Sequence record: NC_054922.1
Strand: one strand, 5' to 3'
Origin: Escherichia phage vB_EcoM_KAW1E185
DNA: 64,000 nucleotides
Below the pieces are notes generated by a model. It made no database searches and was not told the DNA's origin. It saw nothing but the letters and a program-made list of their open reading frames with translations. Below, one piece after another: positions 19,028-38,005 of the stretch. A program made the position numbers and the translations under genes. Positions within the stretch are counted from its first letter, which is position 1. Each line of letters opens with the position of its first letter.

Positions 19028-19996
19028 TTATTTCAGAAGAGTAACCTCAGCGATTTCTTCCCAACCATTTTTGTCGGTCATAATAAAGTCAGCAAGATAA
19101 AGAGCAGTACGCAGTGAAACATTGCGTAAACGATTAACATTGACTTTCATCCATGATAATGCTTTATAAGTTTCTTCATCAGAAAGACCGCGCTTTTGCA
19201 TCATGTCAGTTGAAAGAATAACATCTTCAACCCTGACCATAATTTCTTCATTAGTGTGAACACCCAAATCCAAATAAACTGAGCGGGACACTAATGCTTG
19301 TAAATGTGGAGCAAGTTTAGTACCACGGTCTAATTCGCGGTCAATGTCAACGTTTGTGATAAAAACAATCGTTCCTTTAAATTCAAACTCACGCTCAATG
19401 CCTTTTTCTTCCAAGTAAGAAGATGCAGTGCTCCAGCAGACTTTACGGGTCTCTCCGGTGTCCAGAGCAGCTTTCAGAAGATTAAGAATGTCCATATCAG
19501 AGAAAACATCCACATCATCAATCAAAAGGACAGAATTCTCTTCACGATTATTCCAAAGCTGTTCATAAAGACCGATACCGGAGATTTTACCGTTAATGCT
19601 TTTATATTCAATGTATCCAATATCATTTGCTTTATTTAAAGCTTTATCTAAAGAATACGTTTTACCAATACCCGCCGCACCAGAGATAATTAATGAACGA
19701 ATATTTCCATTAATAATACCATTCGTCATCATTCCCATAACATTAAATCTTTTATTAATGCGGGTTTTCATATCTTCATACGATTCTTTAACTTCTTCAA
19801 CTTTTACACCATCATATGAAATGTCTGATTTGTAAACCCAAACACCGCGACGTTTACCGTCAATTTCAACAAAAACTTTACCATCTCCTTGTGCATCTAC
19901 CGGAGCATTATCTGGGAACCATTCGCCTAAGAGCTCAAAAGTTCCAGAGATTTCTTTACCGAAGTAGATACCCTTATTGATAGTTACAGTTTTCAT
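19028..19996 (-). CDS. P-loop NTPase (AAA-like ATPase), 322 aa
   Basis: Walker A GAAGIGKT, Walker B VLLIDDVD, sensor-like FITN. Confidence 0.65.
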   Translation of the reverse strand: MKTVTINKGIYFGKEISGTFELLGEWFPDNAPVDAQGDGKVFVEIDGKRRGVWVYKSDISYDGVKVEEVKESYEDMKTRINKRFNVMGMMTNGIINGNIRSLIISGAAGIGKTYSLDKALNKANDIGYIEYKSINGKISGIGLYEQLWNNREENSVLLIDDVDVFSDMDILNLLKAALDTGETRKVCWSTASSYLEEKGIEREFEFKGTIVFITNVDIDRELDRGTKLAPHLQALVSRSVYLDLGVHTNEEIMVRVEDVILSTDMMQKRGLSDEETYKALSWMKVNVNRLRNVSLRTALYLADFIMTDKNGWEEIAEVTLLK

Positions 19997-20053
19997 TTTA
20001 TTCTCCTTTGATTTGATAGGACTACTATAACATAGTCCTATCAGTTTGTATAC

Positions 20054-20254
20054 TTATTTTGACATTTCTTCGATGTCACGACGATACCCGTCACGAACTT
20101 CACGAAGAGCTTCAAGGCCACACATAGGCTCGATACCAGTAATGTGAACTTGATTAATCTGATACTCTACATCTTCTAACTGAGCGAAAACATAACGACG
20201 TTCAGCTGCACACCCAGATTTAGCTTTACCGAAACGTTTATTCAAAGTAGTCAT
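20054..20254 (-). CDS. Hypothetical small protein (66 aa)
   Basis: ORF track; just downstream of early promoter. Confidence 0.45.
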   Translation of the reverse strand: MTTLNKRFGKAKSGCAAERRYVFAQLEDVEYQINQVHITGIEPMCGLEALREVRDGYRRDIEEMSK

Positions 20255-20292: not shown

Positions 20293-20321
20293 ATAATACC
20301 ATAAAGCTTTATGCTTGTAAA
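20293..20321 (-). promoter_or_regulatory. Early promoter
   Basis: Minus strand TTTACA - 17 nt - TATTAT then ACAACTATC. Confidence 0.65.
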
Positions 20322-20344: not shown

Positions 20345-20371
20345 AATAAAAAAGGGAGCCCGAAGGCTCCC
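20345..20371 (-). terminator. Intrinsic terminator after nucleotidyltransferase gene
   Basis: Minus strand GGGAGCC-UUCG-GGCUCCC followed by UUUUUUAUUU. Confidence 0.65.
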
Positions 20372-20373
20372 TA

Positions 20374-21387
20374 TCATTTATAATAACTTCGGTGGTTTTC
20401 AAGATAGACCTTCTCAAGGAAGTCATCCCAGAAACTCATGTCTACTGTTTTAGGCATACCGTTCTTAGAAGCTTCAGTAGATGCTGCTTCTACTTGATCG
20501 ACCACATCTTCCAAAAACTCTTGAACCGTTTTAAATGGATGTTTACCCAACTTCACGTCGAGAATAAATGGAGCATCTTGGAGTGGATAAACCAAGTCAC
20601 CAGTTTTGTAAATTTCCAATAGTTGGAGTCCACCACGGCAAGCATGACTCAGAGCTTTCCAGTCAATACCTTCATTGGCTTCGGCCTTACGAGCACGTTC
20701 ACCATATTCAGCATCTAATTTGTTCAGTGACTGCTTAAGCTCAATAAGAGAAAGCGTTGTCTGATATTTACGACCCAACACAGTGTAGAACGTTTGTGGG
20801 CCTGTTTTCTCATGATTATGGAACACCCATTCACAGAATTCGTTTTCTGGAAGACGATGCTTAATATCTTCAACTTTAGTGCGACGCTGCTTAATAGAAC
20901 CATCTTCTTGGTAATCAATCCACTGCTCAGGGATTTGATTAACTACTTTCAATACATCACGTAATGCAGCCAAACGAGAACCCTTGACACCGTATTTAGA
21001 AGCTTGCTTGCGGACATATCCTAAATAGGATTTCATGTTAGTCGTATAAAAACGAGAACGGTTGTCTTGAATAAACTTCCACACATCAGGCAAATCAGAT
21101 TTAACCACTAGTTCAGGTGGAGTGTGAAGCATATCCAATGCTACAGTTTCACCATCTGTTGCTAATTTAAAGAAATATTTAAGACTGTATAGTTCATGGT
21201 CAATATCATCTTTAGTGTTTTTAGATGATGTGTTGTTAGTGTTTTTACTCATGTGCTCTTTGACATTTCCGATAAGAATATCACGAGCAGGAGGAACAAA
21301 AATTTCTTTAAAATCTACATCAGATTCTGGAGTAGAAGTTCCATAAAGATGACTACCAAAATAGCTTTTCATTACTGTTTTCATCAT
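20374..21387 (-). CDS. Predicted nucleotidyltransferase (pol-beta superfamily), 337 aa
   Basis: N-terminal YFGSHLYGTSTPESDVDF = G-S-x10-D-x-D signature; ATG overlaps stop of upstream membrane gene. Confidence 0.6.
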   Translation of the reverse strand: MMKTVMKSYFGSHLYGTSTPESDVDFKEIFVPPARDILIGNVKEHMSKNTNNTSSKNTKDDIDHELYSLKYFFKLATDGETVALDMLHTPPELVVKSDLPDVWKFIQDNRSRFYTTNMKSYLGYVRKQASKYGVKGSRLAALRDVLKVVNQIPEQWIDYQEDGSIKQRRTKVEDIKHRLPENEFCEWVFHNHEKTGPQTFYTVLGRKYQTTLSLIELKQSLNKLDAEYGERARKAEANEGIDWKALSHACRGGLQLLEIYKTGDLVYPLQDAPFILDVKLGKHPFKTVQEFLEDVVDQVEAASTEASKNGMPKTVDMSFWDDFLEKVYLENHRSYYK

Positions 21388-21845
21388 TCAGCCTTATATT
21401 CAATAACAGGACATACTTTAGCTTTACGAGCTTTTAAAAATTCAACGATAATCGATTTCTTGGGTTGAATAGGAGGTAAACCTTTATACGCCCTATCAAT
21501 ATTTTCTATGTGTAAAGCATAATCCTTTTTCCATTTATAATCTTTATATTTTTCATGCAAATGTGCAGGAATAACAAATGAACCGATAATAAGTAAAACA
21601 ACCAAAAGCGCAAGTATAAATGCTGATGGAAGAAGAGTCCATAAACTACCAAAAATAAGCCAACGTTGTAGGCTTTCTGCACAAATAATTGTTAGCCCTA
21701 CGAGTATAGCACATCCAAAAATAGAAACGAAAAATGTAGGAATGGCAATAGACCAAAAATATGCGCATAGTGTCTTAGGTCGTTGCCATTCATCGTTAAA
21801 CAATTTGAATAATTTATAGTGCCAAGAGTTTTCATTAATAATCAT
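21384..21845 (-). CDS. Hypothetical membrane protein (153 aa, ~3 TM)
   Basis: Three hydrophobic segments in the translation. Confidence 0.55.
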   Translation of the reverse strand: MIINENSWHYKLFKLFNDEWQRPKTLCAYFWSIAIPTFFVSIFGCAILVGLTIICAESLQRWLIFGSLWTLLPSAFILALLVVLLIIGSFVIPAHLHEKYKDYKWKKDYALHIENIDRAYKGLPPIQPKKSIIVEFLKARKAKVCPVIEYKAE

Positions 21846-21847
21846 AA

Positions 21848-22369
21848 TTATCCTTTCATTGAAGGCGTAACAGTTGTTAAATACTTAATCATAGCTTCAG
21901 CTTCTGATTTTGATAATGAAATTTCTCCATTGTTTTGACGAATAGAAATAAAATCCGGATGACGGTCACCACCAGCTTTTAAAACACACATATAAGTATC
22001 AACTTCATCTTCAATATTTGAAATGATTGAAGCAGTTCCACATGAATGCGGTTTTTGATAAATCAATGCAGCTTTTCTTCCGCCATTTGACTGTTCATAA
22101 ACTTTTAATACATCAAACAAATCACTTCTTTTATCAATAGCTAAAATGTTATTTTCATCTTCAATGTTAAATCCTTCGGATACTTCATAAAGTGTCACCC
22201 ATAAATCGCCAATATCAATAACAGCGTTCACTTTTCCATGACTTTCAAGAGCATGACAAATTTTCTTGATTTCGTCATAACTCATTTTAATAATATCATC
22301 TCCTTGAATAAGAAAGATGTCATTTTTAAATTCAACACGAATTAAACCACTTCCACTTGAAATAAACAT
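21848..22369 (-). CDS. Hypothetical protein (173 aa), paralog of 22376-22921
   Basis: Shared GFNIE(D/S)E and C-terminal YL..V.P.M with the neighbour. Confidence 0.5.
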   Translation of the reverse strand: MFISSGSGLIRVEFKNDIFLIQGDDIIKMSYDEIKKICHALESHGKVNAVIDIGDLWVTLYEVSEGFNIEDENNILAIDKRSDLFDVLKVYEQSNGGRKAALIYQKPHSCGTASIISNIEDEVDTYMCVLKAGGDRHPDFISIRQNNGEISLSKSEAEAMIKYLTTVTPSMKG

Positions 22370-22375
22370 ATTTCC

Positions 22376-22921
22376 TCACTTTGAAATCATAGTTGGAATA
22401 ACAGAATCAAGATAAGTCTTTAGTGCAATAGCTTCGTCTTTGGTAAATGTGACAATATGTGCTCGAAAATCATCAATTTGACGAATAGTTAAGACATCTC
22501 CATCTTCATAACATTTTGATACGTTTAAAACAGTTTCATCATTCTGATTGCAAGCGTTAGTAATAATAGCATTGCAATTTTTAAACCATTTTAAACTATG
22601 TTTTCTTTCATTAGAATAATAAAAATATTTAATCTTATCTATAAAACTATCCCAATGGATAACTGATAAGCATATTGACTCGCTTTCAATATTAAATCCT
22701 GGGCATGAAGAATAAAAATGAATTTTATGCTCATCATTAATGCTTACAATTTTATCAGTATAAGGATTTTCAATTTTGGTTAAATGAATGATTTCACTAG
22801 GCGTAAAATACAGCATATCGTCTTCTTGTGTCAAACGATACATATTATTTACTTTTTCTATAGCTAATTCACCAAAAAGTGAACTAACTTCTAATACTAA
22901 TCGTTTCGCCGCTACCGTCAT
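22376..22921 (-). CDS. Hypothetical protein (181 aa), paralog of 21848-22369
   Basis: See paralog; preceded by a 34-codon leader ORF and an early promoter. Confidence 0.5.
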   Translation of the reverse strand: MTVAAKRLVLEVSSLFGELAIEKVNNMYRLTQEDDMLYFTPSEIIHLTKIENPYTDKIVSINDEHKIHFYSSCPGFNIESESICLSVIHWDSFIDKIKYFYYSNERKHSLKWFKNCNAIITNACNQNDETVLNVSKCYEDGDVLTIRQIDDFRAHIVTFTKDEAIALKTYLDSVIPTMISK

Positions 22922-23053
22922 TACATACTCCTCTGAATCATATCAATAATGTTGTTCACCAGATTATAAGTAAACATTGGGTAATTATATTGAATCATTA
23001 CATACACAACAAACAAAACTTTCATTCTCTTCTCCTTGGCAGTTGACAAGATT

Positions 23054-23082
23054 ACTATACCATAACCTTGCCAACTTGTAAA
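23054..23082 (-). promoter_or_regulatory. Early promoter
   Basis: Minus strand TTTACA - 17 nt - TATAGT. Confidence 0.6.
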
Positions 23083-23248
23083 CCATTAAATGACGTTTTC
23101 AATAAAATTCTGAAGCTTTGTGTGAGCATCAACCATGATTTTCATTTCTTCTTTTGCGAAAGCTGTACCTCTTTCCCGAGCAGAATACTCATAGTCAGAA
23201 ACTGCATTAGCATATTCTTCAATTAGCTTCATTAAAAACATCTGCTTT

Positions 23249-23443
23249 TCAGTTTTCATTATTCCACCTAATCATTTCAAGATATTGAACTAACTTAGCT
23301 TTGGATTTATCCAAATCTCTTTTAGCTGCTTCTATACCGTCGTATGAATATCCTTCACAATGCTCAACTGCTAATTGATATGAATCTATTTCAATATCAC
23401 GTGCTAATTTAATGATTTTTTCAAACTGTTCACGTGTTAGCAT
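23249..23443 (-). CDS. Small helical protein (64 aa), family MxxxEQxxKI
   Basis: MLTREQFEKIIKL; one of four similar small proteins. Confidence 0.45.
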   Translation of the reverse strand: MLTREQFEKIIKLARDIEIDSYQLAVEHCEGYSYDGIEAAKRDLDKSKAKLVQYLEMIRWNNEN

Positions 23444-23445
23444 AA

Positions 23446-23649
23446 TTAAACTCTCGTATTATGATCGATAATTTCATCAAGAAACATATCTAACGCTTCT
23501 AAAGCATTATCAACTTTAGCTTCAAGTTCTTCAATACCTTTATTTGCAATGCCTGACGAAAACCAAGCAAAGTCACTAAATTCCTCATCTGCTTTACGAA
23601 TTAAAGCTACCAGTTCCTTAATTTTATCCGCTTGTTCGATACTAATCAT
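23446..23649 (-). CDS. Small helical protein (67 aa from MISIEQ), same family
   Basis: ATG overlaps stop of upstream ORF. Confidence 0.45.
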   Translation of the reverse strand: MISIEQADKIKELVALIRKADEEFSDFAWFSSGIANKGIEELEAKVDNALEALDMFLDEIIDHNTRV

Positions 23650-23837
23650 TATTCCACCACATATGAAAGAGAGAATATTGCACACGCCATGTGAGTTGCA
23701 ACTTCATCACACATATTATAACGTTTCTTAAGAAGTTCTACAAGTTCTTCACTAGTAACTTCATCCATGTCGACGAAAAAATCACCATTAATGATGACGT
23801 AGATATTTCCTTCTTGATTGAGTGCTTCAATTTTCAT
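23649..23837 (-). CDS. Hypothetical small protein (62 aa from MKIEALNQ)
   Basis: SD AGAGGAGAA upstream of ATG 23837; ORF-track start lies upstream of the promoter. Confidence 0.45.
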
Positions 23838-23932: not shown

Positions 23933-24319
23933 TTATTCGAGGGAAAGAAGATACTTACTCTGGTAAAACATTCCAGTAATATCATCTATCGTACTTTGAA
24001 TGGCTGGAGGCATTTCTTTATAAATGCTGTTAGATTGGTCTAGTATGCGATCAATCATTTTAATTGTGTCGGTAGGAAGTTTACTGGCATCTGGAATTGA
24101 AGGTGTGTATTTTCTACCAGAATACCCCAAATATTGCTCACCAAATTTATCAATCAAATCTGGCAACTCGGAAAAAATAAAATCGTATGCTTTGTGTCTA
24201 GCATAACTTTTAGTTTCAAAATGTGCAGAATGAAAATAAGCTTGTGCAGCCATTAATAAACCTAAGTATTCATCTGCCTTTGAAGGTTTTCCACTTTGTG
24301 AAAAGTCGCTGAATTTCAT
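23933..24319 (-). CDS. Hypothetical protein (128 aa) immediately upstream of rI on the map
   Basis: ORF track. Confidence 0.5.
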
Positions 24320-36412: not shown

Positions 36413-36488
36413 TGGTCGAGGCAGTAGGGATCGAACCTACGACCTAGGACTTAGAAGGTCCTTGCTCTTCCTTCTGAGCTATGCCCCG
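36413..36488 (-). tRNA. tRNA-Arg (anticodon UCU)
   Basis: Hand-folded cloverleaf, 76 nt, encoded CCA; anticodon loop CUUCUAA. Confidence 0.8.
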
Positions 36489-36492
36489 TAAT

Positions 36493-36568
36493 TGGGGTGA
36501 CCGATGGGAGTCGAACCCATGACTACGAGAATCACAATCTCGAGTTCTACCAACTGAACTACGGCCAC
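36493..36568 (-). tRNA. tRNA-His (anticodon GUG), tentative
   Basis: Hand-folded cloverleaf, discriminator C, encoded CCA; anticodon loop UUGUGAU; no encoded G-1. Confidence 0.55.
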
Positions 36569-36682
36569 ATTAATACCTACTCCAACAATCAAGATGTCTT
36601 CACACGAAATTAAGAGAAGAGTGATCAGTTCAACCCCTATAATCGCGTCAAGTAGATATTAATGTGACAGTTGTCACAAATT

Positions 36683-36757
36683 TGGCGGACGTGATAGGAT
36701 TCGAACCTATAACCAATCGCTTAACAGGCGATCGCTCTGCCATTGAGCTACACATCC
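36683..36757 (-). tRNA. tRNA-Asn (anticodon GUU)
   Basis: Hand-folded cloverleaf, 75 nt; anticodon loop CUGUUAA. Confidence 0.75.
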
Positions 36758-36761
36758 AAAT

Positions 36762-36848
36762 TGGTGGGGAGTGGTGGAGTCGAACCACCCGAGTCGCAAT
36801 GACAATGAATTTACAGTCCACACCGCTACCTCTACGGGATAACTCCCC
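36762..36848 (-). tRNA. tRNA-Tyr (anticodon GUA), long variable arm
   Basis: 87 nt; anticodon loop CUGUAAA; stem has two G-U pairs. Confidence 0.6.
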
Positions 36849-36857
36849 AAATTAATT

Positions 36858-36932
36858 TGGTGGCCCTGGGTGGAATTGAACCACCATCTGGCGATTATGA
36901 GTCGCTTGCTTGAACCTTCCAGCTACAGGGCC
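36858..36932 (-). tRNA. tRNA with anticodon CAU (elongator Met or Ile2-lysidine type)
   Basis: 75 nt; anticodon loop CUCAUAA; G1-C72 pair argues against initiator. Confidence 0.7.
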
Positions 36933-36933
36933 T

Positions 36934-37009
36934 TGGTGCTGATTGACGGAATCGAACCGCCGACCTTCTCATTACAAGTGAGTTGCTCTACCTACTAAGC
37001 TAAATCAGC
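36934..37009 (-). tRNA. tRNA-Thr (anticodon UGU)
   Basis: 76 nt; anticodon loop CUUGUAA. Confidence 0.75.
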
Positions 37010-37014
37010 AAAAC

Positions 37015-37104
37015 TGGCGGAGGCGATAGGATTTGAACCTATGAGTCGCCGGAGCGACTGCCGGTTTTCAAGACCGGTGCATTAAACCACTCTGCCACGC
37101 CTCC
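37015..37104 (-). tRNA. tRNA-Ser (anticodon UGA), long variable arm
   Basis: 90 nt; anticodon loop CUUGAAA. Confidence 0.8.
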
Positions 37105-37110
37105 AAATAT

Positions 37111-37761
37111 TTATATATTGTTAATTTGATTTAGAATTCTTTTTGCTTGAGTATGACTTACGCCAATATGCTTAGCATATTTAGACAATTCGCCACGTTT
37201 AGAAAAATCATATAATTTAGAAATTTCTATTCTTCTTTTTCTTTCATCCGCAGAAACTTTTGCTTCGTTTGCTTTTGCTATTTTACGTTTAGCTTCTTGA
37301 GAATGAGTTTTACCAGCAAAGCCATTCTTCATTAATCCATTTGAAGACCATCCTTTTAATTTTCCGTTAGAATGTGCCTTTTTAACACCCAATGAAATTA
37401 ATTCGCGTTGCTGATCTGTCATAGGATAATTATTTATATGGTCCCATCCACCTTCACCTCCAAGTTTTAAATTATACACATCTGGTCTATTTAAAAACTC
37501 TTCTGTGACAATATTTTTCTCGGCTTCAAGCATAGATTCTTTATCGTCAAAATACTCTAATATTTCTTTAGAAAAATTTTCTATACCATATTTATCTTGG
37601 GCTCTTTTTAATAATTTACCAGAACCCATATATCCATCATCTAAATTTTCGGTAGAATGCACACCAATATAAATTTTATTATTAATTTTATTTGTTATTT
37701 TATAAAGATAAAAATGCATATCAGTCCCTAATAAAGAACTGAGCGTCTCACGACGAGTCAT
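37111..37761 (-). CDS. segB: GIY-YIG homing endonuclease (SegB-like) inserted within the tRNA cluster
   Basis: 216 aa; FYLYKITN...KIYIGV GIY-YIG motif; basic C-terminal DNA-binding tail; flanked by tRNA genes. Confidence 0.8.
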   Translation of the reverse strand: MTRRETLSSLLGTDMHFYLYKITNKINNKIYIGVHSTENLDDGYMGSGKLLKRAQDKYGIENFSKEILEYFDDKESMLEAEKNIVTEEFLNRPDVYNLKLGGEGGWDHINNYPMTDQQRELISLGVKKAHSNGKLKGWSSNGLMKNGFAGKTHSQEAKRKIAKANEAKVSADERKRRIEISKLYDFSKRGELSKYAKHIGVSHTQAKRILNQINNI

Positions 37762-37765
37762 AAAT

Positions 37766-37839
<74 letters not shown>

Positions 37840-37844
37840 AAATT

Positions 37845-37931
37845 TGGTGCGAGAAGTGGGACTCGAACCCACAAGGAAATCATTCCGCAGCATTTTAAGT
37901 GCTGTGCCTTTACCAATTTGACCATTCTCGC
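37845..37931 (-). tRNA. tRNA-Leu (anticodon UAA), long variable arm
   Basis: 87 nt; anticodon loop CUUAAAA. Confidence 0.8.
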
Positions 37932-38005
37932 GCTGGGAATAAAGGACTCGAACCTTTGCATCTAGCAGTCAAAGTGCTATGCCTTACCAACTTGGCTAAT
38001 TCCCA
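37932..38005 (-). tRNA. tRNA-Gln (anticodon UUG), CCA not fully encoded
   Basis: Anticodon loop CUUUGAC; abuts tRNA-Leu. Confidence 0.75.

Follow-up and report, generated by a model that had tools for sequence, protein, structure and literature searches.

Mosaic organization of the nrdC.11 early unit in a T4-like Escherichia phage and the proposed RNA-repair role of its RlaP-family nucleotidyltransferase

Do the minus-strand genes that end with a nucleotidyltransferase (NTase) gene in Escherichia phage vB_EcoM_KAW1E185 form a dedicated functional module, and what might the NTase act on? The locus lies in a 64,000-nt stretch of record NC_054922.1, which we refer to as the window and to which all positions relate. 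An earlier note on this DNA had described four closely packed genes, encoding two mutual paralogs, a protein with three transmembrane (TM) helices and an NTase, together with an early promoter, a 34-codon leader open reading frame (ORF) and a hairpin with a UUCG loop and U-tract, and had read them as a self-contained module for counter-defense or exclusion, without a match in T4. Every element it described is present where it had been placed, but the interpretation is borne out only in part. The block is largely known already and ordinary for T4-like phages: it is a mosaic of accessory genes with a common promoter and terminator, not a co-evolving four-gene machine, and its NTase is the RlaP-family protein NrdC.11. 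Overall, we think it reasonably likely that this T4-type early unit is such an accessory-gene mosaic and that its NTase serves counter-defense by repairing RNA ends.

The DNA of the block is 98.9% identical to Tequatrovirus genomes and matches 732 phage records, 427 of them covering at least 80%. The window comes from an RB32/AR1-type Tequatrovirus. Its block consists of the T4 genes mobD.2, mobD.1 and nrdC.11, with two RB32-type ORFs between mobD.1 and nrdC.11 (Table 1); the supposed lack of T4 counterparts is thus mistaken. In the AR1 annotation the same genes are mobD.1, AR1_101, AR1_100 and nrdC.11, followed by nrdC.10. The order in T4 (T4T record) is mobD.2–mobD.1–mobD–nrdC.11, where the HNH homing endonuclease gene mobD occupies the place of a y05I paralog and a membrane protein gene in the window. 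The 34-codon ORF that had been called a leader is the annotated T4 gene mobD.2 (phrog_3515). The ORF coordinates and junctions confirm the close packing: as read from the sequence, the stop of mobD.2 and the start of mobD.1 overlap in TAATG, gaps of 6 and 2 nt separate mobD.1 from the paralog and the paralog from the membrane gene, and the stop of the latter overlaps the start of nrdC.11 in ATGA.

The NTase that had gone unmatched is 97.6% identical to T4 NrdC.11, a protein recognized as a nucleotidyltransferase since 2006 and as an RNA-repair NTase of the RlaP family since 2016, with biochemistry of the family available since 2025. A match of nrdC.11 orthologs to the NTases of COG3541 was reported in 2006 (PMC1524935). 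The RlaP family ('RNA ligase-associating Pol-beta' NTases) owes its name to an association with RNA ligases (Burroughs & Aravind 2016, according to a paper that cites them), and T4 NrdC.11 is named as an RlaP of cluster 5 in a December 2025 preprint by Carruthers, Fatma & Huang (PMC12776372). Our searches place NrdC.11 in the same family by sequence: the Pfam model PF10127 (RlaP) matches residues 7-135 with 43.1 bits (cutoff 23, E = 5.2e-11) and is precomputed on nearly all NrdC.11 homologs.

An alignment of 59 diverse homologs, reaching 19% identity, has nine invariant residues: G11, S12, G16, S22, D23, D25, G136, H248 and R251. These include the G-S-x10-D-x-D signature (G11-S12...D23-x-D25) from which an NTase fold had been proposed. 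The third catalytic acidic residue, which the note had left to be identified, is probably D63, at least 90% conserved in this alignment and located on a later predicted β-strand (residues 62-68), so that the Pol-beta catalytic signature (hG[GS], DxD, third conserved Asp) appears complete in NrdC.11. The AlphaFold (AF2) model (predicted local distance difference test, pLDDT, 89.3) has an N-terminal NTase domain, a β-rich insert at about residues 155-209, and a C-terminal helical HEPN/KNTase_C-like domain with a conserved G240-x-D-W-K...H248...R251 motif. An NTase domain and a helical domain that together form a cleft have been described for the PfRlaP crystal structure, which the model may resemble. 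Foldseek matches of the model in PDB were weak (E-values of at least 0.009), and the top ones were all Pol-beta NTases, namely kanamycin NTase, 3c18, ANT(4'), Hailong HalB and Tam41, with LinB and AadA also among them; MNT followed further down the list, and HEPN-like proteins were among the fold matches. Sequence searches of a PDB copy that evidently lacks the PfRlaP structure, with NrdC.11 alone and with the 59-sequence profile, yielded no match at E ≤ 1. The signature, model and fold matches uphold the proposed NTase fold.

The narrower assignment to the CD-NTase, MNT, AbiEii or Cid1 families did not hold, and we rejected it. NrdC.11 is an RlaP member at the sequence level, it matches neither NTP_transf_2 nor AbiEii in Pfam at E ≤ 0.1, cGAS and CD-NTases are missing from the listed fold matches, and Cid1 appears there with a probability of 0.08. 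Neither PADLOC nor NCBIfam searches returned a match for any of the five block proteins. At the locus, we found neither the combination of fold or family and adjacent nucleotide-sensing effector that defines CD-NTase/cGAS-DncV systems (cyclic oligonucleotide-based antiphage signaling systems, CBASS), nor a family model together with a HEPN toxin or AbiEi partner, as in MNT/HepT and AbiEii systems.

Genes of the block carry wrong labels that have spread widely through public records, where NrdC.11 appears as 'thioredoxin' or 'putative HNH homing endonuclease' and MobD.1 as 'molybdopterin-guanine dinucleotide biosynthesis protein MobD', 'thymidine kinase' or 'prohead core scaffold protein'.

Table 1. 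Features of the nrdC.11 block and of the unit that follows it, in the direction of transcription.
Feature	Position	Strand	Basis and remarks
Early-type (sigma-70/T4) promoter TTTACA-17-TATAGT, predicted	23054..23082	(-)	consensus scan, 10/12 matches, TG before -10
mobD.2, 34-residue ORF MKVLFVVYVMIQYNYPMFTYNLVNNIIDMIQRSM	22921..23025	(-)	sequence; phrog_3515, E = 2.8e-22; annotated mobD.2 in T4T
mobD.1, 181 residues, T4_y05I family	22376..22921	(-)
Divergent y05I paralog, 173 residues, AR1_101 / RB32-type ORF	21848..22369	(-)	PF24449 and PF24448; not in T4T
Small basic membrane protein, 153 residues, AR1_100	21384..21845	(-)	phrog_944, 1.7e-50; not in T4
nrdC.11, 337 residues, RlaP-family Pol-beta nucleotidyltransferase	20374..21387	(-)	PF10127; phrog_388 ('nucleotidyltransferase'), 2.4e-137
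Intrinsic-terminator-like hairpin, 8-bp GC-rich stem, UUCG loop, T-run	20345..20372	(-)	consensus scan
Next early-type promoter TTTACA-17-TATTAT, predicted	20293..20321	(-)	consensus scan; starts following unit
66-residue ORF, first of following unit	20054-20254	(-)
nrdC.10, after 66-residue ORF	19028-19996	(-)

The scan for consensus motifs recovered both elements that had been proposed to bound the block, the early-type promoter, which lies between mobD.2a and mobD.2, and the UUCG hairpin with its U-tract (AGGGAGCC-TTCG-GGCTCCCT followed by a T-run, scan position 20372-20353). Such a scan is unspecific in AT-rich DNA: it gave 24 promoter-like sites where shuffled sequences gave 16.2 ± 4.6, and 3 terminator-like ones compared with 1.6. 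We did not accept it alone as proof of the promoter. Conservation in T4 relatives argues better for the predicted promoter than the scan does: it is kept in position, with 0-2 mismatches, in AR1, T4T and the IMG/VR loci L009, L010 and L044. The hairpin is identical in T4T, AR1, L009, L011 and L044.

Co-occurrence of the block genes

We scanned 80 IMG/VR loci around relatives of NrdC.11 (36-99% identity) with hidden Markov models. Of these, 34 had a y05I ORF, 39 a member of the membrane protein family, 33 NrdC.10 and 3 a mobD-like gene. The full arrangement of the window occurred in three of the 80 loci, each with at least 98% NTase identity, and below about 58% NTase identity no y05I or membrane genes were nearby, except for one locus with a membrane gene. 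The numbers of phage records for the four genes differ about three-fold (NrdC.11, from many genera, 1525; membrane protein 897; MobD.1 727; paralog 480), and many other genera have the NTase on its own, in some cases near tRNA genes, RtcB or Ro60. Because the four genes do not co-occur, the self-contained four-gene module is unsupported.

Even phages with 97-99% identity in nrdC.11 differ in layout. Besides the exchange with mobD in T4, a Tequatrovirus locus with 97% identity (L011) leads from mobD.3 straight into nrdC.11 and lacks the promoter, mobD.2, mobD.1, the paralog and the membrane gene. JS98 has the order mobD.1–membrane–nrdC.11, in a Jiaodavirus two different small genes separate the membrane gene from that of the NTase, and IME13, VH7D and ZZ1 are without both upstream families.

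Where mobD is present, it always lies directly upstream of nrdC.11, as in L002 (4241-5020) and in the VR26-type locus L015 (5198-6001), where it is found between the membrane gene and nrdC.11. This constancy suggests that mobD targets either the junction or the nrdC.11 5' end. The interval between nrdC.11 and mobD.1 is the published mobD insertion site (PMC2988022); compared to T4, the window has the endonuclease-free allele of this interval, with the paralog and the membrane gene instead. T4 stays viable when it loses the fragment from nrdC.11 to mobD.3 (PMC9825161).

NrdC.11 and RNA repair

Two Pseudomonas RlaPs have been characterized. They add one or two nucleoside monophosphates to the 3'-OH of RNA, with a preference for Mn2+, and favor the broken end of a cleaved-tRNA mimic, with neither DNA nor protein as a substrate; through their action a tRNA without one anticodon-loop nucleotide regains part of its aminoacylation, and RlaP has been proposed as the antidote to ribotoxins, such as RloC, that excise a nucleotide (PMC12776372). 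According to a survey of jumbo phages, the distribution of RlaP mirrors that of RNA ligases (PMC7824862).

From its family membership we infer that NrdC.11 would add one or two nucleotides, independently of a template, to the 3'-OH of damaged RNA. After an RloC-type anticodon nuclease of the host had removed a nucleotide from a tRNA, the tRNA extended by NrdC.11 would be resealed by the phage Pnkp and RNA ligases, which T4-type genomes encode elsewhere, and the outcome would be counter-defense through RNA repair. The Pnkp/Rnl1 tRNA-repair pathway of T4 is established. The counter-defense function that the earlier note had put forward is plausible in this form for the NTase, as an RlaP-family protein, but not in the form of a nucleotide-signal module.

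Several observations weigh against this assignment. RlaP nucleotide addition has been shown for the enzymes of Pseudomonas fluorescens and P. aeruginosa only; these characterized enzymes belong to similarity cluster 1a whereas NrdC.11 belongs to cluster 5, and NrdC.11 differs further by its β-rich insert. The PF10127 match extends no further than residue 135. Unlike in the association that gave the family its name, the nrdC.11 gene is not adjacent to an RNA ligase gene, and neither RNA ligase nor Pnkp is encoded in or beside the operon of the window. Finally, RNA-repair neighbors are a minority among 40 distant phage loci: 2 of them encode RtcB, 2 Ro60 and 3 a CCA-adding-type enzyme, and 6 have tRNA genes.

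Where such neighbors occur, they speak for an RNA role of the NrdC.11 subfamily, as do the location of the roseophage DSS3_MAL1 homolog inside a tRNA/tmRNA gene cluster and the distribution of RlaP in jumbo phages. In these distant neighborhoods, RtcB, as a single protein cluster with members in two loci, is encoded upstream of the NTase in L076 and L085, Ro60 (TROVE + vWA) near it in L073 and L075, and an HD_4 hydrolase directly before it in L075 and L085. No recurrent RNA ligase was found among the 145 distinct clusters of neighbor proteins. Two of the loci, both metagenomic, have compact neighborhoods that look RNA-repair-like: one comprises Ro60, a tRNA cluster, the HD_4 hydrolase and the RlaP-like NTase (L075, 2210-6981), the other RtcB, a 678-residue protein, HD_4 and the NTase (L085, 1600-6960).

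The commonest distant neighbors were a NadR-like cytidylyltransferase with NUDIX (13 loci) and NAMPT (8 loci). In the Aeromonas/Acinetobacter/Vibrio-type loci (L046-L063), the NrdC.11 homolog lies within a few kb of genes of nicotinamide adenine dinucleotide (NAD) salvage, and C-5 DNA methylase (8 loci), SPFH/Band 7 (8 loci) and a giant protein with a PARP domain (3 loci) are also encoded near the NTase. The frequency of NAD-salvage neighbors reflects synteny.

The same chemistry could be directed at tRNA 3' ends, with NrdC.11 taking part in CCA-end repair or in the maturation of phage or host tRNAs. Such a target would suit the tRNA genes that flank the NTase gene in four loci (L070, L075, L076, L086), the tRNA/tmRNA gene cluster within which the homolog of roseophage DSS3_MAL1 is found, and the annotation of one relative (P0233) as 'tRNA nucleotidyltransferase'. 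It would also suit the window itself, where a cluster of ten tRNA genes (Arg, His, Asn, Tyr, Met, Thr, Ser, Gly, Leu, Gln; 36413-38005, minus strand) lies about 15 kb from nrdC.11. T4 itself has eight tRNA genes, two fewer than this cluster. RlaPs can label full-length tRNAs too, and their specificity for nucleoside triphosphates is low (PMC12776372). However, the bacterial enzymes prefer the 3' end of the 5' half of a cleaved-tRNA mimic to the acceptor end, and the presence of a separate CCA-adding-type enzyme near the NTase in L058, L064 and L066 speaks against redundancy. We regard a tRNA 3'-end target as unlikely, though it is the strongest of the alternatives. Repair of anticodon breaks ranks above CCA-end repair, as it does above the HalB-like, signaling and small-molecule NTase activities considered below.

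The y05I/membrane pair and its possible partners

MobD.1 and the product of the following gene are mutual paralogs, as had been noted: BLASTP aligns them with 29% identity over 176 residues (E = 2e-10), and both contain the Pfam domains T4_y05I_N (PF24449, cutoff 24.9) and T4_y05I_C (PF24448, cutoff 27), with 130.1 and 74.5 bits in MobD.1 and 118.5 and 81.2 bits in the paralog. A phmmer search found no third y05I paralog in the window. T4 MobD.1 is 83% identical to the 181-residue protein of the window, and T4 lacks the second, divergent copy. The T4_y05I family is very small and restricted to phages, with 77 clusters at 90% identity. A profile search among 1.84 billion representative proteins yielded 29 representatives, all of them phage-type and many consisting of the C-terminal domain only (65-87 residues), and gave no bridge from y05I to PUR or Whirly families. 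Pfam labels the domains 'putative transcription factor'; we found no functional study in the literature on y05I, PF24449 or mobD.1.

The MobD.1 model (pLDDT 84.4) consists of three ββββα units, which are predicted to pair into a PUR/Whirly-type domain, and it has the three-repeat layout of Pur-alpha. The single-stranded nucleic-acid binders Pur-alpha, Whirly and MRP1-MRP2 are only 5-11% identical to MobD.1, without detectable sequence kinship. Neither MobD.1 nor the paralog matches a PUR or Whirly model in Pfam, and the y05I profile found a chance match only among PDB sequences (E = 4.8). Furthermore, the isoelectric points of 5.3 (MobD.1) and 4.9 (paralog) count against simple nucleic-acid binding, with which such acidity fits poorly. 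As the likeness is confined to the fold, without a link in sequence, and as the two proteins are acidic, we put forward nucleic-acid binding by MobD.1 and its paralog as a hypothesis only.

Two long stretches of the membrane protein, at about residues 26-56 and 62-92, are hydrophobic. The protein is indeed a small membrane protein, as described earlier, but its hydropathy supports two to three TM helices rather than exactly three. Motifs shared by 39 homologs are I-N-x-N-S-W-H at the N-terminus, S-L-C-x-Y-F-W, and K-A-R-K-x-K-x-C-P at the C-terminus. In 34 of 34 loci, the gene directly before the membrane gene is a y05I-related ORF, full-length or reduced to the C-terminal domain (65-108 residues when it stands alone beside the membrane gene), and this pairing spans phages of Escherichia, Klebsiella, Enterobacter, Serratia and Yersinia. 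In only 12 of the 34 does the membrane gene abut the NTase gene, and it is absent from T4. We rejected the membrane protein as an obligate NTase partner. Since the C-terminal y05I repeat is the part always encoded beside the membrane gene, it and the membrane protein are probably the products of a two-gene unit of their own, possibly with a role in nucleic-acid or protein binding at the membrane. Such a pair, with an independent NTase, fits the data better than a four-gene module. The constant adjacency could, on the other hand, result from shared descent rather than from function.

Going further, the C-terminal y05I repeat, as a PUR-like adaptor, and the membrane protein with its Cys motif might be a conserved functional unit of Tevenvirinae, for example in exclusion, lysis timing or sensing, that could also feed into the neighboring RlaP NTase and half of which T4 would have lost to mobD. 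We consider this rather improbable.

A four-gene module for making or modifying a nucleotide signal would combine a CD-NTase/CBASS-like NTase, or one with MNT/AbiEii-like AMPylation activity, with the membrane protein and the paralogs for counter-defense or exclusion. The tight packing or translational coupling under a common promoter and terminator, the Pol-beta signature and the weak fold matches to MNT and HEPN proteins are in line with it, but Pfam, PADLOC and the listed fold matches offer no CD-NTase, as described above. In addition, the co-occurrence that it presupposes is broken in T4, L011, JS98, Jiaodavirus and more distant genera. These co-occurrence data largely refute such a module, and we hold it to be very unlikely.

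The overlap of the membrane gene with nrdC.11 in the window brings to mind Hailong, itself a pair of NTase and membrane channel (PMC13276650), and the NTase could form a Hailong-like or anti-Hailong pair, in which a short oligonucleotide polymerized by NrdC.11, as by HalB, gates or decoys the small membrane protein or the host HalA channel. The likeness to HalB is at the level of the fold, however, and at E ≤ 1 the NrdC.11 profile finds no HalB in PDB. Neither a HalB-family NTase nor an obligate HalA partner is found at the locus. The membrane gene is missing from distant relatives as well as from T4. Characterized RlaPs stop after one or two additions and do not extend DNA, and Hailong HalB/HalA is a host defense locus whereas this is a phage gene pair. 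A Hailong-like function therefore strikes us as highly improbable. That NrdC.11 is a small-molecule nucleotidyltransferase of the aminoglycoside or lincosamide type, as the presence of kanamycin NTase, ANT(4'), LinB and AadA among its top fold matches could suggest, is scarcely credible for an RlaP by sequence, since the tested family members act on RNA only and a lytic phage offers no biological rationale for it.

Flanking genes

The unit downstream of the block begins with a promoter of its own and a 66-residue ORF. This ORF has no match in Pfam; 144 phage records contain it, among them Klebsiella and Serratia phages whose copies are 56-73% identical. The corresponding stretch spans only some 115 bp in T4T and AR1, and the same promoter in T4 therefore reads straight into nrdC.10. 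Between the stop of the ORF and the Shine-Dalgarno sequence and start of nrdC.10, the window contains a hairpin with a 12-bp stem (GATAGGACTA...TAGTCCTATC, 20013-20044). Since the coding (minus) strand has no T-run there, the hairpin may serve in RNA processing or stability and not as a terminator.

The product of nrdC.10 is P-loop/AAA-like, with a GAAGIGKT motif and weak, sub-threshold matches to AAA_14, AAA_22 and STAND. Its gene lies downstream of nrdC.11 in the 33 of 80 related loci that contain it, including that of Acinetobacter phage ZZ1, and it is possible that the two proteins are functional partners.

Just upstream of the block, the equivalents of mobD.2a (23086-23259), mobD.3 (23249-23443) and mobD.4 (23446-23685), all on the minus strand, are three tandem members of the Pfam family DUF7438 and constitute a second local array of paralogs. 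The gene rI.-1 (23933-24319) belongs to DUF5856.

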